From positions 1 to 49,683 of the forward strand of contig PANR01000024.1 in assembly GCA_002707695.1 (NCBI GenBank): a DNA stretch of 49,683 nt, read 5' to 3'. Origin of the DNA: Legionellaceae bacterium. GTDB lineage: Bacteria > Pseudomonadota > Gammaproteobacteria > UBA12402. The notes beneath the pieces were generated by a model that did not search any database, was not told where the DNA came from, and was given only the letters and a program-made list of their open reading frames with translations. Shown one piece after another: positions 3,857 to 49,677 of this stretch. Every line of letters begins with the position of its first letter. Position 1 is the first letter of the stretch. Made by a program: the position numbers and the translations under genes.

Positions 3857-3975
3857 TTGGATTTGTAAATTGGGTGTGCTTAAACAAACCTTAATTGGCC
3901 ATGGACGGCCAATTTAGAGCGACCATGGATCGGCTTGAGCGTGTTTGTTTAAGCGCACCCAATTCGCAAGTCCAA
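3857..3975 (+). repeat. Structured dispersed repeat, GGA-loop family copy A
   Basis: ~33-nt imperfect terminal inverted repeats enclose AATTGGCC-ATGGAC-GGCCAATT, then GAGC, CC-ATGGAT and TTGAGCGTG; same core layout as copies at 20326, 49437 and 49567. Confidence 0.85.
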
Positions 3976-3999
3976 GACTTAAGAAAACCCACGTTATTT

Positions 4000-4086
4000 G
4001 TCGAAGTGGTGGAATTGGTAGACACGCCATCTTGAGGGGGTGGTGGCCTCACGGCTGTGCGGGTTCGAGTCCCGCCTTCGACACCA
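4000..4086 (+). tRNA. tRNA-Leu (anticodon GAG)
   Basis: Acceptor stem GTCGAAG/CTTCGAC, anticodon arm CCATC-TTGAGGG-GGTGG, long variable arm, GGTTCGAGTCC T-arm and encoded CCA. Confidence 0.97.
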
Positions 4087-4151
4087 TGTTTTTTATCCTC
4101 CAATAACGCAATTTTATAAATTTATGTCTCATCTTATAAGTTGCATAATTT

Positions 4152-5366
4152 TTAACTGAGCAGGCCTAGCATAAAAAGCGGGATTTTATTTTTTGTGCCA
4201 ATGAGTATGTCGTCGGCAAAAATATAAGCGTTTTTTTGATCCTTTATTTGTTTGGTGGTTTTATTTTTGCCGCCAATTTCAAAAACATTATCATCGATTT
4301 TAAAATCGCCGTGTTCGCTATAAAAGACTGATAACCCACTGTTTTGTAGTTGGTTGATGGCAAAAGTTTCTCTAACTTTGCCTAAAAGCATATCTTCAGG
4401 TTGTGCTAGATATGCGGCATAAATCAGATTTGTGTTGTCTGGGTACATCTTGATTGGATTGCGTAGATAAGCTTTGCCAGTTTGCTTTTTATAAAGAGCC
4501 CTAATAAGCCCAGCCTGCTGGAGATAGAGTAAGTAACTTGTGATGTTTTCGTAATCTTTCGACAACGTGTTTGCCAATTTATATGCGCTTAACTCTCCAG
4601 GCTGAGAGTGAGTAATGTATTTGTAGAGTTTCTCGATGGTGAGCAGGGTGGGTGTTTTGATGGAGTGCAGGGTTGCAATATCTTCGTAAATTGTTTTTTG
4701 GATGATATTTTCAATAGCCTGCAACATTTGAAAGTTATCTGAAAAGTTGTTAAGAAATGGAAAGTAGCCTGTTTTTAAGTAATTTTTAAAATGTTTCAAA
4801 GGCTGATTGAGAGGTAGTTTGTCAATGATGGTAGTATGTTCATTGAGTATTTGACTTAAGCTCAAACTAGCTAATTTGATTTTTTGAGTAAATTCCAAAT
4901 ATTCTCGAAAAGAAAACCCGTTTAATCGATAAAGCGTTACACGACGTGATAAATCAAACTTGCTATGAATAATATCAATCATTGAGCTGCCGGAGAAAAC
5001 GATTTTAAAGTCTAGATAGAAGTCAGCAATGTTTTTTAGCTCTTGTTCCCAATTTTGATACTTGTGAATTTCGTCAATGCATAGCAGGCGAATGTCGGTT
5101 GTTTTGTAGAGTGTATCAACAAGATTGAGTAGAGTGTTCTCTAAAAAATACACGTGGTCCGCTGACACATACAGCGAAGTCATTTTTTTTTGATTATAAT
5201 TTAGAATGGTGTGAAGCAGAAAAGTCGTTTTTCCGGTGCCTCTGCTACCTATAATGCCTGTGACGCTATTGTCAAAATTGATCGATTCAAAGCAGTTGCG
5301 GTAGTAAAAATCCCCAGTTTTAAACTGGTCTAATAGCAGCTTTTGTAATTCAAGCAATATTTCCAT
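4152..5366 (-). CDS. AAA_14-family ATPase with DUF4143-like C-terminus
   Basis: Walker A GSRGTGKTT, Walker B LLCIDEIH, FSGSS, YLKTGYFP, RETF and FEIGGK; ATG at 5366 preceded by GAGGCG; AT-rich. Confidence 0.85.
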   Translation of the reverse strand: MEILLELQKLLLDQFKTGDFYYRNCFESINFDNSVTGIIGSRGTGKTTFLLHTILNYNQKKMTSLYVSADHVYFLENTLLNLVDTLYKTTDIRLLCIDEIHKYQNWEQELKNIADFYLDFKIVFSGSSMIDIIHSKFDLSRRVTLYRLNGFSFREYLEFTQKIKLASLSLSQILNEHTTIIDKLPLNQPLKHFKNYLKTGYFPFLNNFSDNFQMLQAIENIIQKTIYEDIATLHSIKTPTLLTIEKLYKYITHSQPGELSAYKLANTLSKDYENITSYLLYLQQAGLIRALYKKQTGKAYLRNPIKMYPDNTNLIYAAYLAQPEDMLLGKVRETFAINQLQNSGLSVFYSEHGDFKIDDNVFEIGGKNKTTKQIKDQKNAYIFADDILIGTKNKIPLFMLGLLS

Positions 5367-5523
5367 TTGACGCCTCAATAATTTGGTTATAACCGAATTA
5401 TATAGAAAAAAGACTTAGGTTTCAACCAAACAGCATAAGTTAACCACAGCTGAATTTTAAAAAATAATAAAAACATAGGGTTATAGGCCAATGCCCTCAT
5501 GGGGCTCGGGTATGGCCAATTTA

Positions 5524-6861
5524 TCAAGGCGGTGGCGGTCCACCTAAGGTTCTTGTCTCTCCCCGAGCGGGCTCGAGTGAATATGGAGGTGGCGCGTCAT
5601 CCCGCGCTTGCGGTGTTAGGCTGTTTGCGGTCAGCGCACCGGGAGGTGCTAAGGGCGCCGAGGGTGCGGGCGCAGTGTCAGTTTTTGATGGTGCAGAAGG
5701 TGCGGGTGCAGCTGCAGCGGCAGCGGTTTCTGGCTCCAGCTCCGAGATTACTGTTTGGGGCGCACAGAGCAGATCAGCGAGAACTTTTATTGCCGCTATT
5801 GCATCATCGGTACAAGGCGTTTTTTCACTGGTAGATGCATCAATTTCAGGCGCTAATCGTTTAATATCGGCATCGATCTTGTCTGAAATGCGTGGTTCAA
5901 ATGCAACTGAGTGATTTTGTTCAAGCTGTATGATGATATTGGCAAGCGTCAACGCGTTTGGTTTTAGTGTATGTCGCGTGGTTTCGGCTGCAACTGAGGT
6001 ATTTAGGCATTCGATGCGTATTAAGCAATACAGCAAAAAACTACGGGCCCTTAATAGTCGTAATTGGCTGATTCTTTCTGGGATAGGGGCCAAGCGGAGT
6101 TCTTCTAATAAAGCTTGGGGTGGTTGGGCCTTGCGTAGGTGTTCGCTAAGCGGTGCGACGCGGCTTGGCCTTGCAAAGTTAGGTTTAACAAGAGGTCTAA
6201 GAAAAGATTCTGCAAGGTTTGAAGAGGCAATAAAATTTCCCATCATTTTTTCCGCAGTGGCAACGGCTGCTTCAGTTTCTGGCACTAGGGTGGTTGATGC
6301 AACAATTATTTTATGTGCATGTGTTTGCGCCAGATGGTTGTACACGGCATGAAAGGCTTCTTTCACACCTTCTCCTGTTTTTGCCGAGCAGCGAAAATAA
6401 GCCTTAGCGCCTATTGCCTCGGCAAACGCAGCGATCTCTTCATCGGCGTAAACCCATTGGCTGGTAACGTCAATTTTATTGACAAACAAAAAGATAGGTG
6501 TGCCAGGGGGGAGAAGTGCTATTCGGCTTCTAATACCAGCAAATTCATCCTGAGCCGTTAAATCTAAACAGGCGATATAGGCGTCGCAAGTTTGATGATA
6601 ACTCTTTACTATCGTGTCAAAGCCAGAGTGGCCAGCAATGTCCCATATCCTGAATTTAAAGAAATAACCTTCGTTCCCAAGTATTTTTATACTATAATCA
6701 GTGCCGATGGTGAGATCCACATCAAATCGAAATTGATCATTTATTTCACGCATGACTAAACTGGTTGCCCCGCCTGCACGTACTGAACGAATGATGAGGT
6801 TGAACAGCATGTTCGGTGCGTCTCTGTCTCTTAGACCGTGGTTTTCGAGAATGATTGGCAT
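5524..6861 (-). CDS. Rab-like small GTPase-domain protein with degenerate P-loop and Pro/Ala-rich tail (candidate effector)
   Basis: TIGTDY (G2/RabF1), FRIWDIAG (G3), NKID (G4), CSAKTGEGV (G5); G1 reads SVRAGGATS; RBS AAGGGGGAG upstream. Confidence 0.85.
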   Translation of the reverse strand: MPIILENHGLRDRDAPNMLFNLIIRSVRAGGATSLVMREINDQFRFDVDLTIGTDYSIKILGNEGYFFKFRIWDIAGHSGFDTIVKSYHQTCDAYIACLDLTAQDEFAGIRSRIALLPPGTPIFLFVNKIDVTSQWVYADEEIAAFAEAIGAKAYFRCSAKTGEGVKEAFHAVYNHLAQTHAHKIIVASTTLVPETEAAVATAEKMMGNFIASSNLAESFLRPLVKPNFARPSRVAPLSEHLRKAQPPQALLEELRLAPIPERISQLRLLRARSFLLYCLIRIECLNTSVAAETTRHTLKPNALTLANIIIQLEQNHSVAFEPRISDKIDADIKRLAPEIDASTSEKTPCTDDAIAAIKVLADLLCAPQTVISELEPETAAAAAAPAPSAPSKTDTAPAPSAPLAPPGALTANSLTPQARDDAPPPYSLEPARGETRTLGGPPPP

Positions 6862-6970
6862 AATGAGCTCCCCCTTGTGATGCTTTACTCCATTGTAACA
6901 CGGGCTTGCATTTTAGAATAGACGTGAAAAAATATTGTCCACTGCATAAAATTTGCCATCGGCTTATGCC

Positions 6971-6999
6971 TTGAAAGTTAGTGGTGAAAGCGTTATAAA
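6971..6999 (+). promoter_or_regulatory. Candidate sigma70 promoter of the nuo operon
   Basis: TTGAAA-N17-TATAAA, 67 nt upstream of nuoA. Confidence 0.5.
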
Positions 7000-7066
7000 T
7001 GGTCACGTTCAGTTCTTAATGATTCTGCTAAAACAGATCGGCAATATGTGAGGAAATAACGACAAT

Positions 7067-7423
7067 ATGCTCGGCCAATTTTTTCCAATTCTCGTGTTTA
7101 TCGGTGTGGGTATATTTTTTGGCCTGGCTCCCATCGTCATGGGCTTAATCCTTGGGCCAAATCGTGGTTACAAAGAAAAAACTTCCACCTATGAATGCGG
7201 GTTTGAAGGGGTAGGTAATTCACGCTTACCTTTTGATGTGCGTTATTATCTTGTCGCTATTTTATTTATCTTATTTGATTTGGAAGTCGCATTTCTTGTG
7301 CCTTGGGCAGTAGTTTTCCGCAAGCTTGGATGGTTTGGCATGCTCAGTATGTTAGTTTTTATTCTCCTGCTTCTCGTTGGTTTCATCTATGAGTGGAAAA
7401 AAGGAGCCTTAGAGTGGGAATAA
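7067..7423 (+). CDS. nuoA: NADH-quinone oxidoreductase subunit A
   Basis: [13 protein letters not shown] and [11 protein letters not shown] motifs. Confidence 0.98.
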
Positions 7424-7905
7424 AAGATCTTGCAATTAAATTTCAGCAAAAAGGTTTTGTGGTGACACAAGCTGATCAAGTGTTGAATTGGGCGCGAAGC
7501 GGATCGCTTTGGCCCATGACATTTGGCTTGGCGTGTTGCGCGATTGAAATGATGCAAGCGGCCAATCCGCGTTATGATACCGATCGTTTTGGCGTGATTT
7601 TTCGTGCAAGCCCTCGGCAATCTGACGTGATGATTGTAGCAGGTACGCTTTGCAATAAAATGGCGCCTGCATTGAGAAAAGTCTACGATCAAATGGCTGA
7701 GCCACGTTGGGTGATTTCGATGGGTTCATGCGCCAATGGTGGTGGTTATTATCACTATTCGTATTCGGTGGTACGAGGTTGTGATCGAATTGTACCGGTT
7801 GATATATATGTGCCCGGTTGTCCGCCCACGGCAGAAGCGTTGGTGTATGGTATCATGCAACTGCAAAATAAAATCAATGGCAAAAAAATTATTGAGCGAA
7901 AATAA
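7414..7905 (+). CDS. nuoB: NADH-quinone oxidoreductase subunit B
   Basis: [20 protein letters not shown] and PGCPP; start placed at GTG 7414 after AAGGAG. Confidence 0.97.
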
Positions 7906-8687
7906 TGGCATCGTTAGCAAATCTACAGTTACAGGTGAATGAGCGTTTTGGCAAGGCGCTGTTAACGAGCGTGGTTGAGCACGATGAGTTGACTATCGAA
8001 TGTGAAGCAAAAGATTTGAAATCAATTTGCTTGGCTTTGCGCGATGAAGCATTTTTCGATTTTGATATGTTAGTCGATGTGAGCGGTCTTGATTATTTAG
8101 ATTATGGTGTTGCGCAGTGGAAAACTAATCAAGCAACTAATCAGGGGTTTGATCGTGGTGTGGATCAAGTAAAAGTGTTTGATGATCACAAGCCACGTTT
8201 TGCCTCTGTTTATCATCTATTATCCATCACGCACAACCATCGTATTCGTGTGCGCGCTTTTGTGCCTGACAACATGGCGATTGATTCAGTTATTGATATT
8301 TGGCCTTCAGCAAATTGGTATGAACGTGAAGCGTATGATCTTTACGGCATTCTTTATCAAGGCCATCCAGATTTGCGACGTTTGTTAACCGATTATGGCT
8401 TTGTTGGCCATCCGTTTCGTAAAGATTTTCCATTAAGCGGACATGTGGAAGTGCGTTTTGACGCAAAAGAAGACCGAGTGATTTATGAACCTGTTGATAT
8501 TCAACCGCGCGTGCTCGTGCCTAAAGTTATTCGCGATGATAATCGCTATTTAAATGAAGCGGCCATTCGTCATGAAGAAGACGCAGTCAAGGCACAAAAA
8601 GAAGCTGAAGCAAAAGCTAAAGAAGCGGCTGAGAAAAAAGATGATAAGAAAGATGATAAGAAAGTTGATAAAAAGGGTGAGAAATAG
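7905..8687 (+). CDS. nuoC: NADH-quinone oxidoreductase subunit C, with charged C-terminal extension
   Basis: [24 protein letters not shown] and [10 protein letters not shown] motifs. Confidence 0.97.
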
Positions 8688-9940
8688 TGGCTGAAATTAA
8701 AAACTACACTATCAACTTTGGGCCACAGCATCCCGCGGCACATGGTGTATTGCGTTTAGTGATGGAGCTCGATGGTGAAGTGGTAGAAGGTGCCGATCCG
8801 CATATTGGGTTGTTACACCGCGCAACTGAAAAGCTTGCTGAAACCAAACCTTTTAATCAAAGCATTGGTTACATGGATCGTTTGGATTATGTCGGGTTGA
8901 TGCTCAATGAGCATGCTTACGTGTTAGCGATTGAAAAGCTACTTGGCATCAAAGCGCCTGTGCGCGCACAATATATTCGCGTGATGTTTGATGAGCTTTC
9001 TCGTATTTTGAATCATTTGTTTTGGGTGGGTGCAAATTCACTTGATGTGGGTGCGATGGCGGTGATGCTTTATGCTTATCGTGAGCGAGAAGAAATTATT
9101 GATTGCTACGAAGCTGTTTCAGGTTCTCGTATGCACGCAACGTATTATCGCCCAGGCGGTGTTTATCGTGATTTGCCTGAGAAAATGCCCAAATATAAAG
9201 AGTCTCCATGGCTAAAAGGTAAAAATTTAAAACGATTCAATCAGGGTCGAGACGGTTCGTTGCTCGATTTTGTTGAGGCATTTATCGAGCGTTTCCCGCG
9301 AGAGCTTGATAAATACGAAACCTTGTTAACCGGTAACCGCATTTTTAAACAACGCCTTGTTGATATTGGTGTGATTGAAAAAGATCGTGCCATTGCGTTA
9401 GGTTTTACTGGCCCTATGCTTCGTGCCTGTGGTGTGCCGTGGGATTTGCGAAAGCAGCAGCCTTATGAGGTGTATGACCAGCTCGATTTTGATATACCCG
9501 TTGGCAAAACAGGTGATTGCTACGATCGTTATTTAGTGCGTATGGCCGAGATGCGTGAGTCATTAAAAATTATCAAACAGTGTGTTGATTGGCTACGAAA
9601 AAATCCTGGACCAGTCATGTTGCCTGATCATAAGGTTTCACCGCCGCACCGTGCAGAAATGAAAAAAGGCATGGAAGACTTAATTCATCACTTTAAGCTA
9701 TTTACAGAAGGTTATTGTGTGCCTAAAGGCGAGGCGTATGCCACTGTCGAAAGCCCTAAAGGTGAGCTAGGTGTTTATTTGGTGTCAGATGGTGCAAACA
9801 AACCATATCGTTTAAAAGTGCGTGGTCCGTGTTTTGCGCATATGTCGAGTATGAATGAGTTAAGCCGCGGTTATTTGTTAGCTGATGCAGTGACAATATT
9901 AGCAAGTATGGACATGGTATTTGGCGAAGTGGATCGCTAG
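8687..9940 (+). CDS. nuoD: NADH-quinone oxidoreductase subunit D
   Basis: [26 protein letters not shown] and C-terminal GEVDR. Confidence 0.98.
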
Positions 9941-9963
9941 GTAAACAGAAAGAGAAAAAGTTA

Positions 9964-10464
9964 GTGAGCGAAGTGCAAGACAATATAACCTTATCAAGTG
10001 AAGCAAAAGCGGCAATTGATAAAGAATTAAAAAAGTATCCTGCTGATCGTAAGCGTTCGGCATGCATGGCTGCGCTAACGTTTGTGCAGAAAGAAAATGG
10101 TGGTCATTTGACAAATCCATTAATTGAAGCGGTTGCTGATTATTTAGAAATACCAAGTATTGCCGCCTATGAAGTGGCAAGCTTTTATTCGATGTATGAG
10201 TTGGCGCCTGTTGGGCGTCATAAAGTGTGTTTATGTACCAATGTGCCTTGTATGTTGCGGGGTGCGGATGAGCTTGGCGAGCACATGAAAAAACGATTGA
10301 AGATTAACTATGGCGAAACCACAAAAGATGGTCGGATCACGCTGAAGTCAGTCGAATGTATGGGTGCCTGTGTGGGTGGCCCAATGATGCAGGTCGATGA
10401 TGATGTTTATCATGAAAACCTAACCACTGAAACCGTGGATAAAATTTTGGATGACTTAACATGA
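9964..10464 (+). CDS. nuoE: NADH-quinone oxidoreductase subunit E
   Basis: VASFYSMY; CTNVPC and CMGAC [2Fe-2S] ligands. Confidence 0.97.
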
Positions 10465-11744
10465 CGATTGAACAAAACAAAGTTTGCCGTCGTACTCTAC
10501 ACTTAGATGAGCCATGGACATTGGCTTCCTACAAAAGTGTTGGGGGTTATACCGTATGGGAAAAAATTCTTAAAGAAAAGACACCGCCCGCAGAGATAGT
10601 TGAACAGTTAAAGCAGTCAGGGTTGCGTGGTCGTGGTGGTGCGGGTTTTCCCACAGGTGTGAAATGGAGTTTCATTAAACGTGATGCGCCAGGGCAAAAA
10701 TACGTGGTTTGTAATTCTGATGAAGGCGAGCCGGGCACTTGTAAAGATCGTGATATTTTGCGTTACAATCCACATCAACTTATTGAAGGTATGGCAATTG
10801 GTGCTTACGTTATGGGCGCAACCGTTGGTTACAACTATATTCGCGGTGAATTTGCAGAGCCTATCCGACGTTTTGAGCAGGCATTGAAAGAGGCGCATGA
10901 AGCGGGGTATTTAGGCAAAAATATTTTGGGTTCAGGGTTTGATTTTGATTTACATACTCATCTTGGTGCCGGCGCTTATATTTGTGGTGAAGAAACCGCT
11001 TTGTTGAATTCCATCGAAGGTAAAAAAGGGCAGCCTCGTTTTAAGCCACCATTTCCCGCTAATCATGGTGTGTTTGGCCAAGCGACAACCATCAACAATA
11101 CGGAAAGCTATGCGTCTGTTCCGCCCATTTTGCAACATGGTGCAAAATGGTTTGCTGATATGGGTCCACCGAATAATGGTGGTGCTAAAGTATTCTGTTT
11201 AAGTGGGCATGTTGAGAAGCCACAGAATTTCGAGGTACCGTTGGGCACACCATTTAAAACTTTGTTAGAGATGGCAGGTGGCGTGCGTGGTGGAAAGAAA
11301 ATTAAAGCGGTTATACCGGGTGGTTCATCAATGCCGGTGTTGCCAGGTGAAGCCATGATGAAAGTTAACATGGATTATGATTCATTGATGAAGGCAGGTT
11401 CAATGTTAGGATCTGGCGCTATCATCGTGATGGATGAAAGCACATGCATGGTCAAGGTTGCTGAACGCTTAGCGTTGTTCTATGCCGAAGAATCTTGCGG
11501 GCAGTGCACTCCATGTCGTGAAGGGACCGGATGGTTGTATCGCACCATTCATCGAATTCGTCATGGCCAAGGTACAACAACAGATATTGAAAAGCTGAAA
11601 AATATTGCAGATAACATTGAAGGCCGCACAATTTGCGCGCTAGGCGAAGCAGCTGCTTGGCCAGTGCAAGGGTTTTTACGCCATTTTAAGCATGAGTTTG
11701 AGCAACATGTCGCAGGAAAATGTCCGACAGGTGAATGTGGATAA
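10461..11744 (+). CDS. nuoF: NADH-quinone oxidoreductase subunit F
   Basis: [26 protein letters not shown] and [12 protein letters not shown]. Confidence 0.99.
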
Positions 11745-11772
11745 TGGAGTTGCTGCTATCGTCATCCTGCAC

Positions 11773-11856
11773 CGTTGTTGTCATTCCCGCGAAAGCGGGA
11801 ATCCAGGAATGTTTGTTTTGAACTGGATCCCCGCTTTCGCGGGAATGACAACGGCG
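11773..11856. repeat. Palindromic repeat, GTCATTCCCGCGAAAGCGGGAATCCAG family (dRS3/REP-like), complete doublet
   Basis: GTCATTCCCGCGAAAGCGGGAATCCAG and its inverted copy CTGGATCCCCGCTTTCGCGGGAATGAC lie between nuoF and nuoG; contains ATTCCC-N8-GGGAAT. Confidence 0.9.
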
Positions 11857-11903
11857 AGCGAAAATAGGTATGATGCTGGTGAAAAAGATAGAAGTGAATT
11901 TTA

Positions 11904-14306: not shown

Positions 14307-14309
14307 ACT

Positions 14310-15335: not shown

Positions 15336-15350
15336 GTGAGATAGGAACTT

Positions 15351-16783: not shown

Positions 16784-16786
16784 TGT

Positions 16787-18757: not shown

Positions 18758-18767
18758 AGGGTAGGCG

Positions 18768-20325: not shown

Positions 20326-20437
20326 GGCTTAGAAGAGGAGGTGATTTTGAAAAGCACGCGGTAAATACATCCCTGTATGCTCCATCAAAACATCCATGTT
20401 TTGAAGGGTTTTTCAAAATCACTTTCTCTCTTAAGCC
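20326..20437 (-). repeat. Structured dispersed repeat, GGA-loop family copy B (GGA strand antisense to nuo)
   Basis: ~30-nt inverted arms; minus strand reads TCAAAAC-ATGGAT-GTTTTGA, GGAGC, ATAC-AGGGAT-GTAT, then GCGTG. Confidence 0.85.
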
Positions 20438-27321: not shown

Positions 27322-27392
27322 CGGGACCATTGCAAACAGCCCCTTAAACTTTAGTTATCGGGGCAATGATTAAAATAATCTCATTGGCGTAT

Positions 27393-27425
27393 ACCAAAAA
27401 GGCGGCTATTTGCCGCCTTTTTGGT
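27393..27425. terminator. Bidirectional intrinsic terminator
   Basis: ACCAAAAAGGCGGC-TATTT-GCCGCCTTTTTGGT between the convergent oxygenase and nrdB genes. Confidence 0.85.
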
Positions 27426-27435
27426 GTGTTTGATA

Positions 27436-34261: not shown

Positions 34262-34295
34262 CGTTCTTCCCGTTCGCTTCATGCCGACTTTTCGT

Positions 34296-36580: not shown

Positions 36581-36602
36581 CTTTTCCCGCGCGCTTTTTG
36601 CT

Positions 36603-37397: not shown

Positions 37398-37426
37398 GAG
37401 CGGCACTATAGCACTTTTGTTCACAT

Positions 37427-38407: not shown

Positions 38408-38420
38408 AAGAGGAAGAGAC

Positions 38421-40036: not shown

Positions 40037-40037
40037 T

Positions 40038-40592: not shown

Positions 40593-40600
40593 ACCATGCT

Positions 40601-40679
40601 GTCACCCCTGCGTAGGCAGGGGTCCAGTTGTAGCCCGCATGCAGCTTTCCCGCATTACGCTTCGCTTCATGCGGGCTAC
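40601..40679. repeat. Composite repeat: GTCA...TCCAG half-copy plus GTAG-type REP inverted pair
   Basis: GTCACCCCTGCGTAGGCAGGGGTCCAG, then GTAGCCCGCATG...CATGCGGGCTAC; minus strand reads GTAGCCCGCATGAAGCGAAGCGTAATGCGGG. Confidence 0.8.
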
Positions 40680-40703
40680 ATCCTAAAACTTAGGTAGGTT
40701 GGC

Positions 40704-42238: not shown

Positions 42239-42339
42239 CTAGCATGTGACTCATTATAGAGGCTAATTACCTAGCTATTATTTACCTTATACCAAAGTTC
42301 CGTTATTCTGCGTGGACGTTTTTGAGGGTTACGTACAGT

Positions 42340-44652
42340 ATGATTAAAAAAGTTGCATTAGTAAGTTTATTGACCATGACCTTGGGCAGCGCAATGGCTG
42401 CTGACGATGGGTTTGTGATTCAGCATATCCAAGTCAATGGACTTCATCGCATTCCCCTTAAAACATTGTACAGTTATTTGCCTATCAAGTTGGGCGATAG
42501 GATCAATGCCCAAACGAGCACCGCCATTATTCAGGATTTATACAAATCAGGCTTTTTCTCAAACATCAATTTGACCCGTCAAGGCAACACACTCAATATC
42601 GATGTGGTGGAGCGGCCAGTCATTGGTGATCTTACTATCCACGGCAATAAAGCGATTAAAACAGCCGCGTTGCTTAAGGCATTGAAGGGCCAGGGTATTG
42701 CGACAGGGCTTGAGTACAACCCATCGACCGTTGATGAAATCAAAAACGTATTATTCGATCAATATTTTTCGCAAAGTAAATATAGCGTTAATGTAACAAC
42801 TAAAGTTAATGAGCTTTCAACAGGTCGAATCGGCTTAAACATCGATATTTCTGAGGGGAAAGAGGCTAAAATTGCCAAGGTGACGGTTATTGGTAATACG
42901 GCGTTTGACGAAAAAGAGCTGCTCAAGCAGTTTAAGTTATCCCCACCAAATCTATTATCATTCTTCACGCATAACGATTTATACTCCAGTGAAAAACTGC
43001 AGTCAGACTTGGATAGATTGCGTTCTTTTTATTTAGATCACGGTTATTTGCAATTTCAGTTAAACAATTCGCAAGTATCGATTACGCCCGCGCGTGATGA
43101 AATTTATGTGACTGCTGATATTACAGAAGGCCCTCAGTACCGCATTAAGGGTTATCAATTTACTGGTAATACGGTTTTGTCGCAGGATGTTTTGAAGAGT
43201 TTTGTCCCATTTAAAACAGGTGATATATTTTCACGCCAACAAGTGATTAATGTTGAAAAATCTGTGACTGACAAGCTTGGTGAAAAAGGTTATGCGCGCG
43301 CTAATGTTCAGGTAATACCAGCGATTGATCAAAACAATCATCAAGTTGGTTTGAATTTTCATGTGCAGCCAGGTGATCGTATTTATGTTCGTCATATTAG
43401 TTTCTCCGGCAATTATCAAACCAATGACACCGTGCTTCGTCGAGCAGTCGAGCAATTTGAAGGCGCATTAGTGTCAACAACACAATTAAAAGCGTCTAAG
43501 CAGGATCTGTTACAACTGCCTTATATTTCCGATGCGAAAATGACAGTGTCGCCGGTACCGAATCGCGTGAATGAAGAAGATGTGCATTACAATGTTACTG
43601 AGCACTCAAGCGCTTCATTAAATGCTGGGATTGGTTACTCAGATACTGATGGCTTGCTTTTCCAAGCGGCATTTAATCAAAAAAGCTTTTTGGGCACAGG
43701 CAATAGTTTAAATTTACAGTTTTCACGTTCTGCTTCGACCACCTCTTATAATGTTGATTATTTCAATCCGTATTACACAATCTGGGGTGTGGGTCGTGAA
43801 ATCAGTTTCAATTATTCGCATTATAAAGCTGACCAAGTGAACCTTGCTGACTATGCAACCAATAATTTGGGCGCCGCGATTAATTACAGCTTGCCCATTT
43901 CTCATAACTTGGCTTATCAGCTTGGCGCTGGTTATAACAACAGTATTTTGATTGAAGGCAACTCACCGCCGCAATTTATGGGTGATTTTACCAATAAATA
44001 TGGTAAACACTATTATGACTTATCTCTAAACACGGGATTGACATACAGTAATTACGATCGTGCTATTATGCCAACATCAGGCACGCAGCAATCGCTTGGT
44101 TTGACGGCCACAGCCCCTGTCGGCGGTAAGTCTTTACGCTACTATCAAAGTAGTTATAGCTTTGAGGGCTATTTGCCGCTTTATAAGCAAGCATGGGTAT
44201 TTAATGGTAGTGCGAACTTAGGTTATGCCAATGGCTATGGCGCATATGGTGGTCACTATCCATTTTTCAAAAATTATTTTGCAGGTGGTATGGGCTCGGT
44301 GAGAGGCTACGAAACGAATACGCTTGGCCCGAAAGATGAAAATGGTGATCCTATCGGCGGTAACATTTTGATGACAGGTTCAGTTGGTCTCATCTTCCCT
44401 AACCCAATTAGCCATAACGTTCGCACAAGTCTATTTGTTGATGGCGGTAACGTATTTGATTCAAATAAATCACAGCATGGTCTTGGTGTTAAGGGCGTTG
44501 CGTTTAACAAAATTCGTTACTCAACAGGGGTTGAGCTCGATTGGTTGAGTCCAATGGGCTTTACACTACAGTTTTCTCTAGCTAAGGCGTTAAATCCAGG
44601 TAACCACAGTAAAACGCAGGTGTTCGGATTTAATATTACGGCCGGGGTTTAG
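42340..44652 (+). CDS. bamA: Outer membrane protein assembly factor BamA
   Basis: Signal peptide, POTRA repeats, VRGY motif and beta-barrel C-terminus. Confidence 0.97.
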   Translation: MIKKVALVSLLTMTLGSAMAADDGFVIQHIQVNGLHRIPLKTLYSYLPIKLGDRINAQTSTAIIQDLYKSGFFSNINLTRQGNTLNIDVVERPVIGDLTIHGNKAIKTAALLKALKGQGIATGLEYNPSTVDEIKNVLFDQYFSQSKYSVNVTTKVNELSTGRIGLNIDISEGKEAKIAKVTVIGNTAFDEKELLKQFKLSPPNLLSFFTHNDLYSSEKLQSDLDRLRSFYLDHGYLQFQLNNSQVSITPARDEIYVTADITEGPQYRIKGYQFTGNTVLSQDVLKSFVPFKTGDIFSRQQVINVEKSVTDKLGEKGYARANVQVIPAIDQNNHQVGLNFHVQPGDRIYVRHISFSGNYQTNDTVLRRAVEQFEGALVSTTQLKASKQDLLQLPYISDAKMTVSPVPNRVNEEDVHYNVTEHSSASLNAGIGYSDTDGLLFQAAFNQKSFLGTGNSLNLQFSRSASTTSYNVDYFNPYYTIWGVGREISFNYSHYKADQVNLADYATNNLGAAINYSLPISHNLAYQLGAGYNNSILIEGNSPPQFMGDFTNKYGKHYYDLSLNTGLTYSNYDRAIMPTSGTQQSLGLTATAPVGGKSLRYYQSSYSFEGYLPLYKQAWVFNGSANLGYANGYGAYGGHYPFFKNYFAGGMGSVRGYETNTLGPKDENGDPIGGNILMTGSVGLIFPNPISHNVRTSLFVDGGNVFDSNKSQHGLGVKGVAFNKIRYSTGVELDWLSPMGFTLQFSLAKALNPGNHSKTQVFGFNITAGV

Positions 44653-44689
44653 TTTGTTTAATTTGATTAATCATTTAGGAGAGCAAGTT

Positions 44690-45223
44690 ATGAAAAAAAC
44701 AGCGAAATTATTATTAGCATCTGTTGCCACATTGGGATTGTTAAGTAGCGTGTATGCTGCAGATTTGAAAGTTGCGACTGTCAATGTAGCGAAAGTGTTG
44801 CAATCTTCCTCTGTTGTGAGTAAGGCAAAAAGCAGTTTGCAAGCTAAGTACAAGCCTCAATACAACAATATTGAAACGGCACAGAAAAAAATGGTAGCAG
44901 ACATCAATAATTTGAAGAAAAATTCTGAAACCATGTCTGCAAGCGCGCGTAAAACCGCTCAGAACAACATTGCTCAAGAGCAGCAAACGTTAATTGCTCA
45001 GCAGCAACAGTTTCAACAACAGTTGACTAAAGCGCAACAGCAAACCATGCAAGCAGTGTTGTCACGTTTGCAAACCGTTATTGCTAAGATTGCTCAACAA
45101 AATGGCTATACGCTAGTGTTACCTAAAGATGCTGTGGCTTATGCGGCCAGCAATTTAGATATTACTCCTCAGGTATTAAAATCTTTTGATGCCTCTGGTG
45201 CGTTGCCAGGCGCAGCGTCTTAA
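44690..45223 (+). CDS. skp: Periplasmic chaperone Skp/OmpH
   Basis: Signal peptide, KVATVNV, coiled coil and DITPQV; position after bamA. Confidence 0.92.
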   Translation: MKKTAKLLLASVATLGLLSSVYAADLKVATVNVAKVLQSSSVVSKAKSSLQAKYKPQYNNIETAQKKMVADINNLKKNSETMSASARKTAQNNIAQEQQTLIAQQQQFQQQLTKAQQQTMQAVLSRLQTVIAKIAQQNGYTLVLPKDAVAYAASNLDITPQVLKSFDASGALPGAAS

Positions 45224-45261
45224 TTGTGGTAGTGGTTGCTGATTAATTGGGTGTGGTTAGG

Positions 45262-46809
45262 ATGACTGATGTACGCATAACACTTCAAGAGCTGGCTAAA
45301 ATGATAGATGCCGAATTACGTGGTGATCCCAACCATGTGATAACCGGCATCAAAACATTACAAGTTGCCGAAGCTTGCGATCTTAGTTTTTTGGGCAACC
45401 CAGTTTATCGCAAGTATCTGGCTGATACGAAGGCGGGTGTGGTCATCTTGGCGCCCAAGTATTTGCCGGACTGCTCGACAAACGCACTCATTGTCGATGA
45501 TCCTTATTTTGCTTATGCCAAAATTACAGAGTTGTTCGTGCGTAAACCCTCTGCCTCTCAAGGTGCGCATACAACGGCAGTTGTAGGAGAGCGTTGTGAG
45601 ATTCACCCTTCGGCGAGCATTGGTCCCAAATCAGTTATTGCTGATGACGTCAGTATTGGTGAAGGGACGGTGATTGGACCTGGTGTGTCGATTGCTGCCG
45701 GCACGACAGTTGGCAAGCACTGTAAAATCGATGCGAACGTTACCATTTGTCACGAGATTGTCATTGGTGATCGTGTCATTTTGCATGCAGGCACAGTGAT
45801 CGGTTCGGATGGGTTTGGTCTGGCAGAAAAAAATGGTGTCTGGCATAAAATTCCTCAGCTCGGCCGCGTGATTATTGAAGATGATGTTGAAATCGGTGCT
45901 AACACGACAATTGACCGAGGGGCCTTAGGTGATACGGTCATTGAAAAAGGTGTTAAGTTAGATAATCAAATTCAAATTGGACACAATGTCCGGATCGGTG
46001 CACACACTGCTATTGCTGCATGCACAGGTGTTGCAGGCAGTACACGGATTGGTAAGCATTGTAAGATTGCCGGTGGTGTCGGTATCAACGGTCATTTGGA
46101 GATAGCAGATTACACCGTTATTACCGGCATGGCGATGGTGACTAATTCTGTTAAAGTACCAGGCATTTATTCATCAGGCACAGGTATTTTGCCAAACCAT
46201 GAATGGAAGAAAAACGTTGCGCGTTTTCGTCAGCTTGACAAGGTATTGCGTCGGGTGGGCGGTTTGTATCAAGAAAATAGAATAAACGGAAAGACGGTTA
46301 AAACGACTGCGCCGCATGGTGCGTTTGAAGCGAAGAGGGCTCCAGTAATGAAAGATAAATTGATGGGTATTGATGAAGTGTTTAAACACCTTCCGCATCG
46401 ACCACCATTTTTGCTGATTGACCGTGTGGCTAAATTTACGCCCAATGAATCGTTAACGGCAATAAAGAATGTCACTATTAACGAGGCATTTTTTCAAGGA
46501 CATTTTCCAGCAAAACCGATTATGCCAGGTGTATTGATTCTTGAAGCATTAGCGCAAGCTTGTACGGTTTTTGCGTTCTTAACGACTGGTGAAGATCCAA
46601 ATGCAGGCGGATTATATTATTTTGCAGGCATCGATAATGCACGATTTAAACGCCCGGTTGAGCCTGGTGATCAGCTTGTGCTTGATGTTCAATTTGTTAA
46701 AGCTCGTCAAGGTGTTTGGAAAATGAAGGGAGTCGCCTCGGTTGCCGATGAGGTGGTATGTACGGCTGAATTGTTAAGTGCGAAGCCAAACGAGGGTCAA
46801 GGGAAATGA
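45262..46809 (+). CDS. lpxD: In-frame LpxD-FabZ fusion ORF (LpxD acyltransferase plus FabZ dehydratase)
   Basis: Hexapeptide repeats, GSDGFG, IDRGAL and DNQIQIGHN; no stop before the FabZ motifs [12 protein letters not shown] and [18 protein letters not shown]. Confidence 0.9.
46348..46809 (+). CDS. fabZ: FabZ moiety, possible internal translation start
   Basis: In-frame ATG at 46348 with GAGGG 8 nt upstream; FabZ catalytic His and Glu motifs. Confidence 0.8.
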
Positions 46810-47585
46810 GTAAATTGATTCACAAAACAGCCATCATTGATGCCAAGGCCGAGTTAGCCAGTGATGTGACAGTTGGACCTTATAGCGTGATTGGACCCGA
46901 CGTTAAAATTGATGCAGGCACATGTGTTGGCTCTCACGTTGTGATTAAAGGCCCCACCACTATAGGAAAAGACAATAAAATTTTTCAGTTTGCGTCGATT
47001 GGGGAAGACCCTCAGGATTTAAAATATCAAGGCGGTGAAACGCGCTTAGAGATTGGTGATCGAAATCGAATTCGTGAATGTGTGACCATTAACCGCGGGA
47101 CAGAACTAGGTGGCGCTGTCACAAAAATTGGTGACGATAATTTATTGATGGCTTATACACACATCGCTCATGATTGTATTTTACATAACCATCTTGTTTT
47201 GGCGACACACGTCTCGGTTGCTGGGCATGTCACCATTGGCGATCACGCAGTTTTAGGCGGGTTTTCTGGTGTTCACCAGTTTTGTCATATTGGTGCTTAT
47301 AGCTTTGCAGCGGCAGGCTCAATGATTCCCAAAGATATTCTTCCTTATACAAAAGTGTCTGGTTATTATGCCAAACCATTTGGGTTGAACGTGGTTGGAT
47401 TGCAGCGTCATCAGTTCGCTGAAAAAACAATTGCCTGTTTAAAAAACGCTTACCGCATTGTGTATCGTCAAGATTTAAAAGTCACAGAAGCTGTTGACGA
47501 ACTCGTTAAAATCCGCGCGATATGCCCAGAGGTTGATTTGATGATCAATGTGCTAAAAAATTCTGAGCGAGGCGTTGTGAGGTGA
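46806..47585 (+). CDS. lpxA: UDP-N-acetylglucosamine acyltransferase
   Basis: PQDLKY, HIAHDC, VHQFC and GLNVVGL. Confidence 0.98.
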
Positions 47586-47588
47586 TTT

Positions 47589-48722
47589 ATGCCCTTAAAG
47601 GTCGCATTGCTCGCAGGTGAGCCATCAGGTGATGCATTAGGGGCGAGTCTATTAAAAGCGCTGCGCGAGCGTTATCCAGATCTTATCGCTAAGGGCATTG
47701 CTGGCCCTAACATGCAAAAAGCGGGTTGTGAGTCGTTGTTTCCCATGGAAAAGTTGAGTGTAATGGGGTTGATTGAACCGCTCAAACGTCTTCCAAGTTT
47801 ATTCCTTATTCGTCGACAATTTATTAAAAAAATAAAAGCTTTCAAGCCAGATGTCTTCATTGGCATTGATTCACCCGATTTCAATTTGGGTGTTGAGATT
47901 GCTTTAAAAAAAGCAGGTATTAAGACGGTGCACTATGTGAGTCCGTCAATTTGGGCGTGGCGACCTAAACGTATTCATAAAATAAAAAAGGCGGTGGATT
48001 TAGTGCTGTGCATTTTGCCTTTTGAGCTCGTCCTGTATGAAAAAGAAAAGATACCGGCCGTTTATGTCGGACATTCGCTTGCGGATGAAATTTCAGTGTG
48101 GTGTTACCAAGAAAAAGCCAGACAGCATTTTGGGTTGCCCGTTGATGCAAAGGTGTTGGCGGTGTTGCCAGGTAGTCGTGAAACAGAAATAAAATATATT
48201 GCGCCCACTTTTTTGGAGGTGGCAAAACGCTGTCAACAAAGTATGCCTAACTTATTTTTTTTGGTCCCCATGGTTAATCACGCGCGCCGCAAACAGTTTA
48301 TTCAACTTCTACGAAAAAGTGGGATTAAATTAAAAAATTTATATTTACTTGATGGAGAATCGCGCGATGCGATGATTGCGTCAGATGCAGTGCTCATGGC
48401 ATCAGGCACCGCTAGTTTAGAAGCGATGTTGCTCAAGCGCCCGATGGTCGTTGCTTATAAAATGTCGACACTTACGCATTGGCTTGCAAAAAAATTAGTA
48501 AAAACAAACTTCATTGCGCTTCCCAATATTCTTAATAAAAAACAAGTCGTGCCGGAATTCATTCAAGATAATGCAACACCAGAGACATTAACCACCGAGG
48601 TGCTCAAACAGCTTCAGACGAATCATGATGATTTAGTCGCAAACTTCCAAGAATGGCATGCCATTCTTCGCCAAAAAGCCGGCAAAAAGGCCGCGCAAGC
48701 TATCCTTGATTTGATTGCGTGA
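47589..48722 (+). CDS. lpxB: Lipid-A-disaccharide synthase
   Basis: AGEPSGD, IDSPDFN, YVSPSIWAWR, LPGSR and SGTASLE. Confidence 0.98.
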   Translation: MPLKVALLAGEPSGDALGASLLKALRERYPDLIAKGIAGPNMQKAGCESLFPMEKLSVMGLIEPLKRLPSLFLIRRQFIKKIKAFKPDVFIGIDSPDFNLGVEIALKKAGIKTVHYVSPSIWAWRPKRIHKIKKAVDLVLCILPFELVLYEKEKIPAVYVGHSLADEISVWCYQEKARQHFGLPVDAKVLAVLPGSRETEIKYIAPTFLEVAKRCQQSMPNLFFLVPMVNHARRKQFIQLLRKSGIKLKNLYLLDGESRDAMIASDAVLMASGTASLEAMLLKRPMVVAYKMSTLTHWLAKKLVKTNFIALPNILNKKQVVPEFIQDNATPETLTTEVLKQLQTNHDDLVANFQEWHAILRQKAGKKAAQAILDLIA

Positions 48723-49334
48723 TTAACGTTTTTTCACACGTTCAACGGCTTCTTGAATAGCAAGTTTGCGCGCTTCAAGGGTGTCGCGTTGATTGCTTGT
48801 TTGTTTGTGAGCAAGTTTAGCGTGTTGATGTTTACGTGCCAGATTGGCTTTTTCAATAGAAAGCCGTTTCTCTCGATTATTAAAACGCATTCGATAGTGT
48901 GCTGAGTGCAATGCGGGGTCTTTTGCTTCAACCATGTCGATACAATCGACAGGGCAGGGTTCAACACACAATTCGCAACCCGTGCATTCGTCATTAATCA
49001 CAGTGTGCATTTGTTTTGATGCGCCAAGTATGGCGTCAACAGGGCAGGCGCTGATGCATTTAGTGCAGCCAATACACTCTTCTTCACGAATGGCCGCAAG
49101 CAATTTGGGTTTTTCTTTTTGCTGCATTTCGTCTATGTAGGGTGTTGCGTCTTGTTCGGTTATTGCTGCTAATTTTTTTAATCCTTTTACACCCCCGGGC
49201 GGGCATAGATTAATGGCTTCACCATCATTGACAATAGCTTCGGCATAAGGTTTGCATCCGTCATAGGTGCATAAGCCGCATTGCGTTTGCGGGAGAATAT
49301 CATCGATGTCTTTAATTGTGATTTTGTGTTTCAT
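48723..49334 (-). CDS. rnfB: RnfB/RsxB-like iron-sulfur protein
   Basis: [31 protein letters not shown] and [12 protein letters not shown]. Confidence 0.88.
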
Positions 49335-49436
49335 TAATTTAAGTTCTCTAGGAATGTGTGCGGGTATTTCCTCCCAAACACACTCCTCAATTCACGGCCA
49401 TTTTGTTCGTTCAGTGATCATCGAGTGATGCTGGGC

Positions 49437-49544
49437 AAGGAGAGTCCAGGTTGATTATTCAGACACGCAACAAGTACATCCCTGTATGCTCTGGCAAAAC
49501 ATCCGTGTTTTGCAAGGTCTGAATAATCAACCCGAACTCTCCTT
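49437..49544 (-). repeat. Structured dispersed repeat, GGA-loop family copy C
   Basis: 28-nt arms with 2 mismatches; minus strand reads GCAAAAC-ACGGAT-GTTTTGC, AGAGC, TAC-AGGGAT-GTA, GCGTG. Confidence 0.85.
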
Positions 49545-49566
49545 TTATGGCTTATGCTCATTTCAA

Positions 49567-49677
49567 AAGAGATGGGCGGGTGATTCCGGACAAACCCTTG
49601 TTGGCCAGGGATGGCCAACTTGGAGCGTCCCACGGATGGGTTTGAGCGTGTTTGTGAGGAATGCCCGCGTATCTCTT
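49567..49677 (+). repeat. Structured dispersed repeat, GGA-loop family copy D
   Basis: Imperfect arms; GTTGGCC-AGGGAT-GGCCAAC, GGAGC, CCC-ACGGAT-GGG, TTGAGCGTG. Confidence 0.85.

Follow-up and report, generated by a model that had tools for sequence, protein, structure and literature searches.

Sponge small RNAs of the Csr/Rsm systems are encoded by single-copy or few-copy genes, each with a GacA/UvrY-dependent promoter of its own and a terminator, and have 5-22 sites. REPs are simple hairpins of 20-40 nt whose 5′ tetranucleotide is conserved; a REPIN consists of two REPs in inverted orientation, and both are moved by cognate Y1 transposases (RAYTs), whose genes they flank. The closest described system is the TwoAYGGAY RNA motif of Weinberg et al. 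(2010, PMC2864571), which is RF01731 in Rfam and is filed there in CL00106, the clan for Csr-Rsm protein binding. The idea of CsrA binding by TwoAYGGAY is already in print (Gardner and Eldai, 2015, PMC4333381), and so are "multivalent Csr/Rsm sponges" with a "mobile-element-like" expansion (Li et al., 2026, preprint, bioRxiv 10.64898/2026.09.22.753630). Section 8 of this preprint gives the divergent doublet as the commonest doublet form in Pseudomonas and describes an extended Pseudomonas form that has three more hairpins, a pseudoknot, and repeat arrays at its flanks. Its main text does not use the words replication, lagging, 'leading strand', or 'GC skew'.

A repeat family of the TwoAYGGAY type

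The window is the whole stretch of DNA analysed here, 49,683 nt in length. A first-pass annotation had reported four elements of one architecture in it, and they were confirmed in the sequence (Table 1). When each left flank was aligned locally against the reverse complement of the right flank, exactly the same element ends were obtained. The hairpin 1 stems (AATTGGCC, TCAAAAC, GCAAAAC, and GTTGGCC) and all eight loops had also been read correctly.

Table 1. Positions of the four copies and their parts in the window
Feature	Position	Strand	Description
Copy A	3857..3975	+	Subfamily with TTGGCC hairpin 1
Copy A, hairpin 1	3893-3914	+	Loop ATGGAC at 3901-3906
Copy A, hairpin 2 loop	3925-3930	+	ATGGAT
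Copy A, outer arms	3857-3887 with 3945-3975	+	Paired with each other
Copy B	20326..20437	-	Subfamily with CAAAAC hairpin 1
Copy B, loops	20397-20392; 20374-20369	-	Hairpin 1 ATGGAT; hairpin 2 AGGGAT
Copy C	49437..49544	-	CAAAAC subfamily
Copy C, loops	49506-49501; 49483-49478	-	Hairpin 1 ACGGAT; hairpin 2 AGGGAT
Copy D	49567..49677	+	TTGGCC subfamily
Copy D, loops	49607-49612; 49632-49637	+	Hairpin 1 AGGGAT; hairpin 2 ACGGAT

The four copies fold much better than their own shuffles (z = -6.5 to -11.3), and both strands fold very stably. Copy A (MFE -63.4, z = -10.9; 96.1 bits with the family's own covariance model, R1) lies 22 nt past secG and 25 nt ahead of tRNA-Leu(GAG), sense to both. Copy B (MFE -42.0 on the (-) element strand and -49.3 on the opposite strand; 70.2 bits) lies between nuoM and nuoN in the nuo operon, antisense to both genes. 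Copy C (MFE -62.4, z = -11.3; 76.8 bits) lies 102 nt upstream of rsxB/rnfB and is sense to it. Copy D (MFE -59.0, z = -6.9; 89.4 bits) forms a divergent (head-to-head) doublet with copy C at the contig end, 22 nt apart. The covariance model found no further copy in the window. In the genome, which is represented by 1.35 Mb at 62% completeness, a core-profile search found 25 copies (E <= 1.3e-10; the next match has E = 0.99).

The anatomy is common to the family. A long basal stem, whose inner pairs of (C)AAAC with GTTT(G) are conserved and whose outer 15-25 bp are copy-specific, encloses a conserved, non-palindromic core of about 62 nt with two internal hairpins. The loop of each hairpin is small and shows NGGA, and its closing pairs are A-U and C-G (CA-NGGA-UG). 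The joints of the core are GGAGCG between the hairpins and YTTGAGCGTG after hairpin 2. Two consecutive hairpins on one basal stem were seen in single-sequence folds, in RNAalifold, and in pair counts over the 25 copies. The covariation claimed from the window is real. In the 25-copy alignment, 83.3% of the cells are paired versus 62.3% in shuffles, and 235 cells have changes on both sides versus 87 in shuffles; none of 500 shuffles reached either of the observed values, and slid controls gave 27-45% pairing. Changes on both sides occur in 30 of the 38 pairs. For hairpin 1, 96% of the cells are paired and 8 of the 10 pairs have such changes.

It had been suspected that the family may not be new, and this proved right. 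Judged by sequence, the elements are best placed as a divergent lineage of RF01731 TwoAYGGAY, for which both the CsrA-sponge idea and the mobile-element idea have been published. Like TwoAYGGAY, they have two adjacent hairpins on a common long basal stem and GGA in the loops, are multi-copy and intergenic, and belong to Gammaproteobacteria. The poor conservation of the outer stem, as described for TwoAYGGAY in PMC4333381, and the divergent doublets of the preprint's section 8 are shared as well. With RF01731, a match at E <= 10 was obtained for 12 of the 25 copies, and its strand agrees with that of the own covariance model; only three reach the gathering score of 43 bits (49.0, 47.5, and 43.2 bits), nine stay below it, and 13 have no match. 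Copy A (32.6 bits, E = 0.0016) and copy D (16.5 bits, E = 7.6) are among the nine. Unlike the family proper, the CAAAAC subfamily, to which copies B and C belong, has no RF01731 match at all. The loops are ANGGAN rather than the strict AYGGAY, which was found in 11/25 copies for hairpin 1, in 15/25 for hairpin 2, and in both loops of 6/25; most of the other loops with GGA read AGGGAY, AAGGAY, or, at a length of 5 nt, AGGAY. The form here is a simple long stem, in contrast to the extended Pseudomonas form.

CsrA-type loops and the Csr system

The GGA of the loops is indeed kept, in 24/25 copies for hairpin 1 and likewise in 24/25 for hairpin 2 (48/50 loops). The loops and their closing pairs fit the CsrA consensus, as had been claimed, and the two GGA motifs of an element are 23-25 nt apart. 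By sequence, the hairpins are classed as predicted CsrA/RsmA sites, with two consensus GGA hairpins per element. The exact SELEX 12-mer reported for copies B (20367-20378) and C (49476-49487) was found there, in one more copy of the family (three copies in total), and at two places of the genome outside the family. There are 27 exact CANGGATG words inside the elements, all on one strand, and they are retained in other genomes, across element GC contents of 40-69%.

An absence of csrA, which had been named as a point that would speak against the idea, is not the case; the genome has three csrA genes. The gene was found in 14/14 genomes with elements, but also in 54 of the 61 searched genomes overall. 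Within the bacterial family, there are 1 to 14 csrA matches per genome, and their number is not significantly correlated with the number of elements (Spearman 0.19). None of the 14 genomes of the bacterial family has a match over the gathering score to the Rfam models of CsrB, RsmY, and RsmZ (RF00018, RF00166, and RF00195).

CsrB and CsrC, as well as RsmX, RsmY, and RsmZ, resemble the elements in having hairpin loops with GGA that agree with the CsrA consensus, and are in the same Rfam clan, CL00106. Unlike these sponge RNAs, the elements have two sites per unit and are dispersed in 25 copies. No promoter-like site was found around A, B, or C/D, and none of the 35 matches to a GacA-box motif, with up to two mismatches allowed, is near an element. 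Having neither such a site beside them nor a match over threshold to the sRNA models, the elements were rejected as sRNA genes of the CsrB/RsmY/RsmZ type.

Spread, arms, and proposed mobility

The family is widespread, as had been thought possible. Elements were found in 14 of 61 searched relatives, the present genome (G000) included, and in two named Marinobacter species. In the 13 other genomes of the bacterial family, the lowest copy number is 0 and the highest is 24. For two congeneric genomes, seven orthologous pairs of elements are identical at 740/749 positions (98.8%), and the flanks, known for six of the seven pairs, are 90-95% identical. Orthologues keep their arms, whereas paralogues with near-identical cores have arms that differ in a compensated way. 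This suggests that each new copy has its arms made anew. Two sister species differ in the presence of whole palindromes. In one case, the filled site has 144 nt and the empty site 29 nt, and in another, the insert is about 190 nt. In the one clear comparison of a filled with an empty site, there is an imperfect direct repeat of about 20 nt, which is longer than usual target duplications. One intergenic site is occupied by different subfamilies in two species. None of 24 flanking-gene pairs of the present genome is shared, in the same arrangement, with the element loci of the relatives.

The outer arms had been described as largely unrelated between copies. A blastn-short search with 50 arms against the genome gave only chance matches of 13-15 nt, the sole exception being the locus C18:64096-64125; the arms are thus unique in 24/25 copies. 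At two loci (C18:64094-64267 in the present genome and L054 in the relative G008), a direct repeat of the arm sequence lies next to the element. In the outer arms of the present genome, mismatches on the GGA strand are G.U in 27 cases and A.C in 12 (binomial p = 0.024). This asymmetry is absent from the relatives' alignment A4 (14 vs. 21) and from fixed-column counts on A2 (46 vs. 47).

A MITE, which is marked by family-wide terminal inverted repeats and short target-site duplications, is likewise small, non-coding, multi-copy, and palindromic. The first-pass annotation took the variable arms as an argument against an ordinary MITE, and this holds in the present genome, where the arms are unique to each copy. 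It does not hold in sister genera; members of one subfamily have conserved arms in genus g9 and in G054, and these arms resemble terminal inverted repeats. No target-site duplication was detectable, as the longest word common to both flanks averages 4.96 nt versus 4.91 nt in controls, and no conserved cleavage motif was found at the elements. With unique arms and no direct repeats above control, the elements were not classified as MITEs in the present genome. A linked transposase was also looked for, and none is linked to the elements. The Y1 transposase domain (PF01797) was found neither in the present genome at its 62% completeness nor in G054, which is 98% complete and has seven copies. No element flanks the Y1 genes of G008; on the same contig, the closest one lies at a distance of 14 kb. 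Among the searched genomes, Y1_Tnp occurs in 12/14 with elements versus 26/47 without (Fisher p = 0.059, with related genomes that are not independent).

REPs and REPINs resemble the elements as dispersed intergenic palindromes, often right after stop codons and inside operons, with a copy number that varies strongly between relatives and a suspected single-strand biology. This genome also has a true REP-like family, which comes to within about 50 nt of 3/25 element copies. Unlike REPs and REPINs, the elements have a non-palindromic 62-nt core, two internal hairpins, and copy-specific arms. An assignment to REP/REPIN with RAYT was rejected on this core, on the lack of a PF01797 match in the present genome at 62% completeness, and on the unflanked Y1 genes of G008.

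It might still be argued that the stable hairpin as such, in either orientation, is the function, as in REPs and BIMEs, and that it serves as a 3′ end barrier giving stability to the mRNA upstream of it, a terminator, or an insulator while the loops have no specific role. In 15/25 copies, the gap to the nearest stop codon of the ORF calls is only -13 to 25 nt, with two copies overlapping the stop, and copies lie inside operons (nuoM-nuoN and lgt-thyA). By reading of the arm sequences, roughly 10/25 copies have an A-run at the start of the arms and a T-run at their end, which is the pattern of bidirectional terminators, and the genome has about 70 core-less hairpins of this A-run/T-run kind with 12-19 bp stems. 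The very stable folds of both strands fit this explanation as well. However, it leaves unexplained the conserved core, the GGA loops, and the fixed joints amid variable stems, and also the strand bias described below. A terminator between nuoM and nuoN would uncouple the operon, and a scan for terminator-like sequences gave none at B and only chance-level ones at A and C/D. I consider this explanation very unlikely.

Orientation and a reading of the elements

Where the neighbour genes are co-directional, the GGA strand runs antisense to them in 9/13 cases in the present genome and in 16/19 cases in the relatives G008 and G013 (25/32 combined). The GC skew was also analysed, as no more than a proxy for the replication strand; it is correlated with the gene direction (r 0.66). 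Within +-10 kb, the GGA strand is on the C-rich strand in 21/25 copies of the present genome (p = 0.0009). Copies B and C follow this rule, while copy A, whose GGA strand is on the G-rich strand, and copy D are exceptions. The counts are 16/24 in G008, 13/16 in G013, and 23/29 in eight further genomes including G054 (7/7), which gives 73/94 copies in twelve genomes. The skew predicts 21/25 orientations in the present genome, while the local coding majority predicts 15/25. The ORF calls place 6/7 copies of G054 between convergent genes and give no right-hand ORF for the seventh. Thus, the sense of transcription cannot explain the bias in G054. Since the orientation follows the GC skew, it points to a DNA-level process.

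The first-pass annotation had proposed a mobile two-site CsrA cassette that acts as a sponge or brings transcripts under Csr control. Its covariation, its fit to the CsrA consensus, the presence of csrA, and the spread of the family stand. The control of transcripts is weakened by the mostly antisense GGA strand, including that of copy B in the nuo operon, by the lack of a promoter-like site beside the four copies, and by the orientation along the GC skew.

A purely DNA-level element would dispense with CsrA altogether. The two hairpins would be recognition structures for a dimeric enzyme acting on single-stranded DNA at the replication fork, e.g., a Y1/HUH transposase of the IS200/IS605 or RAYT kind, and the likeness to CsrA sites would be incidental. 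The skew bias, which outpredicts the coding majority and in G054 is beyond the reach of transcription sense, is in its favor, as are the compensated arms of paralogues versus the kept arms of orthologues and the more frequent Y1_Tnp in genomes with elements. However, this co-occurrence is not significant, no Y1 transposase was found in the present genome at its 62% completeness or in G054, the Y1 genes of G008 are far from elements, and there is neither a cleavage motif nor a target duplication. The skew is tied to gene direction. Moreover, it is hard to claim coincidence for a match to the CsrA consensus at eight positions, in both loops, across 40-69% GC. This explanation is possible but rather doubtful.

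More tentatively still, elements of the TwoAYGGAY type could be an undescribed kind of replication-fork-directed mobile palindrome whose arms are rebuilt at each copying, which I regard as unlikely. The active single strand would be the complement of the GGA strand on the lagging-strand template, and the arms would be rebuilt by fold-back or template-switch copying of the sequence adjacent to the core. The CsrA-type loops might be dual-purpose or might be the recognition hairpins of some enzyme. Such copying would explain the roughly 99% identical arms of orthologues, the compensated paralogues, and the direct repeats beside elements at two loci.

The reading that I prefer, with a probability of about 0.55, is that the elements are a mobile palindromic DNA repeat of a divergent TwoAYGGAY lineage, whose core has two predicted CsrA-type hairpins, and that only some copies are RNA-capable. 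At the DNA level, the comparative data suggest that the repeat is mobile or selfishly maintained. Whole palindromes would be gained and lost, other subfamilies may re-occupy intergenic sites, and insertion or survival may depend on the replication strand. At the RNA level, a transcript of the GGA strand would offer two near-consensus CsrA/RsmA sites on a rigid stem, as far as the motif indicates. Their spacing of 23-25 nt may suit one CsrA dimer, and such a copy would titrate or recruit CsrA, as others have proposed earlier for such elements. Copy A, inside the secG-tRNA-Leu unit, and copy C, upstream of rsxB, would be fit for this role. From antisense copies, e.g., B in the nuo operon, only a stable hairpin that lacks GGA loops would form.

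The idea of CsrA titration has already been published for TwoAYGGAY, and therefore the window adds an instance but no concept. What is added here is the orientation bias, the antisense placement, the lack of promoter-like sites beside the four copies, the stable arms of orthologues with compensated differences between paralogues, and the gain or loss of whole palindromes seen between sister species. The skew bias together with these arm patterns makes the choice between an RNA regulator and a single-strand DNA parasite testable. If CsrA binding is true, this small marine genome would have dozens of two-site decoys spread through its operons, and the bacterial family would be a natural system for Csr titration without the classical sponge RNAs.

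Two-hairpin palindromes in the genome

All four elements that the first-pass annotation had described are present in the window with their stems and eight loops, and each folds as a long outer stem enclosing two hairpins. Their coordinates were reproduced exactly when each left flank was aligned with its reverse-complemented right counterpart, and the SELEX 12-mer quoted for copies B and C is there. All of A-D are intergenic, and no sigma-70-like sites were found around any of them.

Elements and other repeats in the window. Orientation is that of the strand carrying the GGA loops (the GGA strand); z-scores are against dinucleotide shuffles.
Feature	Position (strand)	Setting	Orientation	MFE (kcal/mol)	Fold z-score
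Copy A	3857-3975 (+)	between secG and tRNA-Leu(GAG)	sense to both	-63.4	-10.9
Copy B	20326-20437 (-)	between nuoM and nuoN	antisense to the nuo operon	-42.0	-6.5
Copy C	49437-49544 (-)	102 nt upstream of rsxB/rnfB	sense	-62.4	-11.3
Copy D	49567-49677 (+)	head-to-head partner of C, at the contig end		-59.0	-6.9
REP-like inverted pair	11779-11789 (-), 11840-11850 (+)				
Core-less 16-bp hairpin	27391-27427	between an A-run and a T-run, bidirectional terminator type			

The G000 assembly, of which the window is contig C24, has 1,350,486 bases in 56 contigs, with 43.5% GC, and is rated 61.8% complete. A core profile found 25 copies in it (E <= 1.3e-10; the next match has E = 0.99), and R1, the covariance model made from these, recovered the same 25 copies. 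The core is conserved over about 62 nt and reads (C)AAAC, CC(Y)T, hairpin 1, GGAGCG, hairpin 2, YTTGAGCGTG, and TTTG. As had been claimed from the window, GGA is conserved in the loops: it is present in 24 of the 25 loops of hairpin 1 and in 24 of the 25 of hairpin 2, with a spacing of 23-25 nt between the two motifs. The loop with its closing pairs, CANGGATG, occurs 27 times within elements, on a single strand throughout.

The claimed covariation was also recovered. In the 25-copy alignment, 83.3% of the cells are paired versus 62.3% after shuffling, and both sides have changed in 235 cells versus 87 in the shuffles; none of 500 shuffles reached the observed values, and slid controls gave only 27-45% pairing. 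In hairpin 1, 96% of the cells are paired and eight of the ten pairs have double changes. An independent RNAalifold run predicted the outer stem and hairpin 1.

Outer arm length is 19-32 nt in 24 of the 25 copies, while the copy at C18:38682 (contig C18) has no right arm. Summed over the G000 copies, the arm pairing consists of 587 matches, 27 G.U, 12 A.C, 16 other mismatches, and 7 gaps. It had been noticed that the arms seem unrelated between copies, and indeed they are unique to each copy, having in common just a few 8-9 nt words. When the 50 arms were searched against the genome with blastn-short, the matches were at chance level except at one locus.

A divergent lineage of the TwoAYGGAY family

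At gathering thresholds, Rfam finds only tRNA in the window, and a permissive search of the other copies gave RF01731 (TwoAYGGAY) as the best family. This model matches 12 of the 25 G000 copies at E <= 10, on the strand given by R1. Three of the 25 exceed its gathering score of 43 bits, A and D score 32.6 and 16.5 bits, and B and C, which belong to a subfamily with a CAAAAC hairpin 1, have no match. The G000 elements are a divergent lineage of this known family, and what the first-pass annotation found is real and well described.

TwoAYGGAY was reported as a probable RNA, not cis-regulatory, from human gut, gamma-Proteobacteria, and Clostridiales (Weinberg et al. 2010, PMC2864571). It later matched a CsrA-binding motif model and CsrA sequestration was proposed, the external stem of the Rfam model being one that "is not well conserved" (Gardner and Eldai 2015, PMC4333381). 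A 2026 preprint on Pseudomonas gives 16,086 matches across 1,148 of 1,324 strains, a median copy number of 11-23 outside the P. aeruginosa group, and an enrichment of divergent doublets, which make up 68.4% of doublets (10.64898/2026.09.22.753630). Since both the CsrA reading and the mobile-element reading are in print for TwoAYGGAY, the interpretation offered for the window had already been published. A literature search for CsrA with GGA in repetitive extragenic elements found none, and one for CsrA with miniature inverted-repeat found nothing relevant. The identity of the elements as integron attC sites was considered and dropped, because the elements have a conserved centre and variable ends, whereas attC sites have conserved ends and a variable centre.

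Is the family widespread, as was supposed? R1 has matches in 14 of the 61 genomes searched, G000 included; these tallies take in the unpublished genome G052, which has no R1 match. Among the 13 other genomes of the same bacterial family, eight have matches and five have none. There are 24 and 16 copies in two genomes of the genus g9 and 8 in G004. The copy counts in relatives are lower bounds, because R1 misses a third subfamily with GGA loops in the g9 genome G013 (L086, about 2660-2790 on the minus strand, and L174, about 2660-2790). When one genome per species was scanned with a strict pattern, nine stretches were found, four of which were confirmed by R1 (Marinobacter azerbaijanicus, M. 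orientalis, one Pseudomonadota MAG, and one Piscirickettsiaceae MAG), the pattern being too strict for mapping the distribution. The CANGGAUG words are retained where elements have 40-69% GC.

In G004 (L176-L183), an additional outermost stem, GCCTG.C with G.CAGGC, lies beyond an asymmetric internal loop and has compensated variants. In G054 (L192-L198), the conservation between copies extends about 30 nt into the flank on either side; thus, the repeated unit there exceeds the model.

Evolution of elements and their arms

Seven orthologous pairs of elements were compared between G008 and G013, the two g9 genomes. The elements are identical at 740 of 749 positions (98.8%), while the flanks, compared in six of the seven pairs, are 90-95% identical. 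Thus, the elements, arms included, are conserved in place. Among paralogues of the main g9 subfamily, the cores are near-identical and many arm positions differ with the partner changed too, and the palindrome frequently extends into the locus-specific flank. The stability of orthologous arms against the compensated differences of paralogues is a new, testable contrast.

Orthologous sites of G008 and G013 can be occupied by different subfamilies (L052/L086 and L063/L174; by coordinates, likewise L055/L078 and L047/L067). At L051, a filled site of 144 nt stands against an unrelated 29-nt spacer in G013, and at L054 the whole long palindrome forms an insert of about 190 nt, on either side of which lie about 20 nt of the target as an imperfect direct repeat; with no outgroup, either case may be an insertion or a deletion. 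The G013 counterpart of L060 has 278 nt of other sequence, and that of L049 falls at a contig end. In a candidate filled/empty pair from G010 and G002, the flanks are merely 72-74% identical. A metagenome scan with NuoN for a close relative with an empty nuoM-nuoN site found none, the best identity being 58%. No flanking genes are shared in the same arrangement between the G000 element loci and those of relatives, and no target-site duplications or flanking direct repeats above control were found at the G000 elements.

About 70 core-less hairpins with stems of 12-19 bp were found in G000, among them the one in the window. They made it attractive to suppose that the arms are older terminator hairpins split by core insertion; this was rejected for L051 and L054, the two informative loci, whose empty sites contain neither arm. 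At C18:64094-64267 (L212), a core-less hairpin lies directly upstream of an element and has identical arms (25 + 24 nt, 100%). The copies of a 27-nt direct repeat begin at 64094 and 64138, and beyond the element, at 64259, there is a similar word of 10 nt. This arrangement, unique among the 25 G000 copies, looks like the footprint of duplication and core loss, or of arm copying.

The stop codon of lgt and the start codon of thyA overlap or nearly touch in four genera. This junction shows turnover: it is occupied by an element in G000, by a palindrome that retains a core-like remnant in G006 and G012, by a different palindrome in G008, and by REPs in G001. The C-terminal tails of Lgt are too variable to judge whether the arms derive from the coding 3' end.

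A second, far commoner REP-like repeat, in which ATGACA comes after a short GC-rich hairpin, has 113 matches in G000. It is frequently arrayed in tandem, at a period of 40-48 nt, and frequently found at contig ends. Three of the 25 TwoAYGGAY-like copies (on C1, at C42:11622, and on C54) have it no more than about 50 nt away, and it is also found after lgt in G001. Pseudomonas TwoAYGGAY is associated with REP arrays (10.64898/2026.09.22.753630). That the elements themselves have a purely structural, REP-like role seems to me improbable.

A linked transposase was sought as well. The Y1 transposase domain (Y1_Tnp, PF01797) was not found in G000, which is 62% complete. It is present in 12 of the 14 genomes with elements versus 26 of the 47 without (Fisher p 0.059). 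None was found in G054, which has seven copies at 98% completeness, and no Y1 gene of G008 adjoins an element.

Strand orientation and CsrA

G000 has three csrA genes over curated cut-offs, at 62% completeness. All 14 element-bearing genomes have csrA, yet so do 54 of the 61 overall. The gene is strongly expanded in relatives from the same bacterial family, with genomes of 1.2-2.1 Mb (PF02599 matches: 14 in G008, 9 in G004, 9 in G011, and 8 in G013). Within the bacterial family, csrA copy number does not correlate significantly with element number (rho 0.19). The CsrB, RsmY, and RsmZ models, which often miss distant sponges, have no match over the gathering score in the 14 family genomes. A GacA/UvrY upstream box motif has perfect matches only at C11:12039 and C46:23511, neither near an element nor with a GGA-rich stretch within 330 nt.

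It had been proposed that the elements bring transcripts under Csr control, and the orientation of the copies does not bear this out. Between co-directional genes in G000, A being counted with its tRNA, the GGA strand is antisense in nine copies versus sense in four. In G008 and G013, it is antisense in 16 and sense in 3. The pooled antisense fraction is 25/32 (p 0.002), or 23/30 (p 0.005) after removal of two orthologous duplicates.

GC skew is strong in G000, and the plus strand of the window is G-rich along its whole length (+0.03 to +0.165). The GGA strand is the C-rich strand in 21 of the 25 G000 copies (+-10 kb; p 0.0009), while the local coding majority predicts the orientation in just 15 of 25. 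B and C obey this rule, and the four G000 copies that break it include the other two window copies, A and D. The same orientation was found for 16/24 copies in G008 and 13/16 in G013, where only about 2.5 kb of flank is available and local genes dominate, and for 23/29 over eight further genomes with 10-kb loci (7/7 in G054). ORF calls place six of the seven G054 copies between convergent genes, the seventh having no right-hand ORF. The total is 73/94, with a significance that is overstated by the non-independence of related genomes and of orthologous copies. Most bacteria have the G-rich strand as their leading strand, and contig skew correlates with the coding strand in G000 (r 0.66). Thus, the complement of the GGA strand would lie on the lagging-strand template. 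This replication-strand bias of the copies is a new, testable point; the main text of the Pseudomonas preprint (10.64898/2026.09.22.753630) contains none of the terms replication, lagging, "leading strand", or "GC skew".

Arm mismatches were compared to see which strand is under structural selection, and the counts disagree between sets. G.U exceeds A.C in G000 (27:12, p 0.024) and in mixed relatives (16:5), the ratio in G008/G013 is 14:21, and fixed-column counts on one alignment, A2, are 46 versus 47. The GGA strand is the better-folding strand in 17 of the 25 G000 copies. I regard a purely DNA-level element as possible and rather unlikely. The reading that I prefer, with a probability of roughly 0.55, is that the palindromic DNA repeat is mobile and that its core encodes two hairpins of the CsrA type; only those copies that are transcribed on the GGA strand could then act on CsrA.
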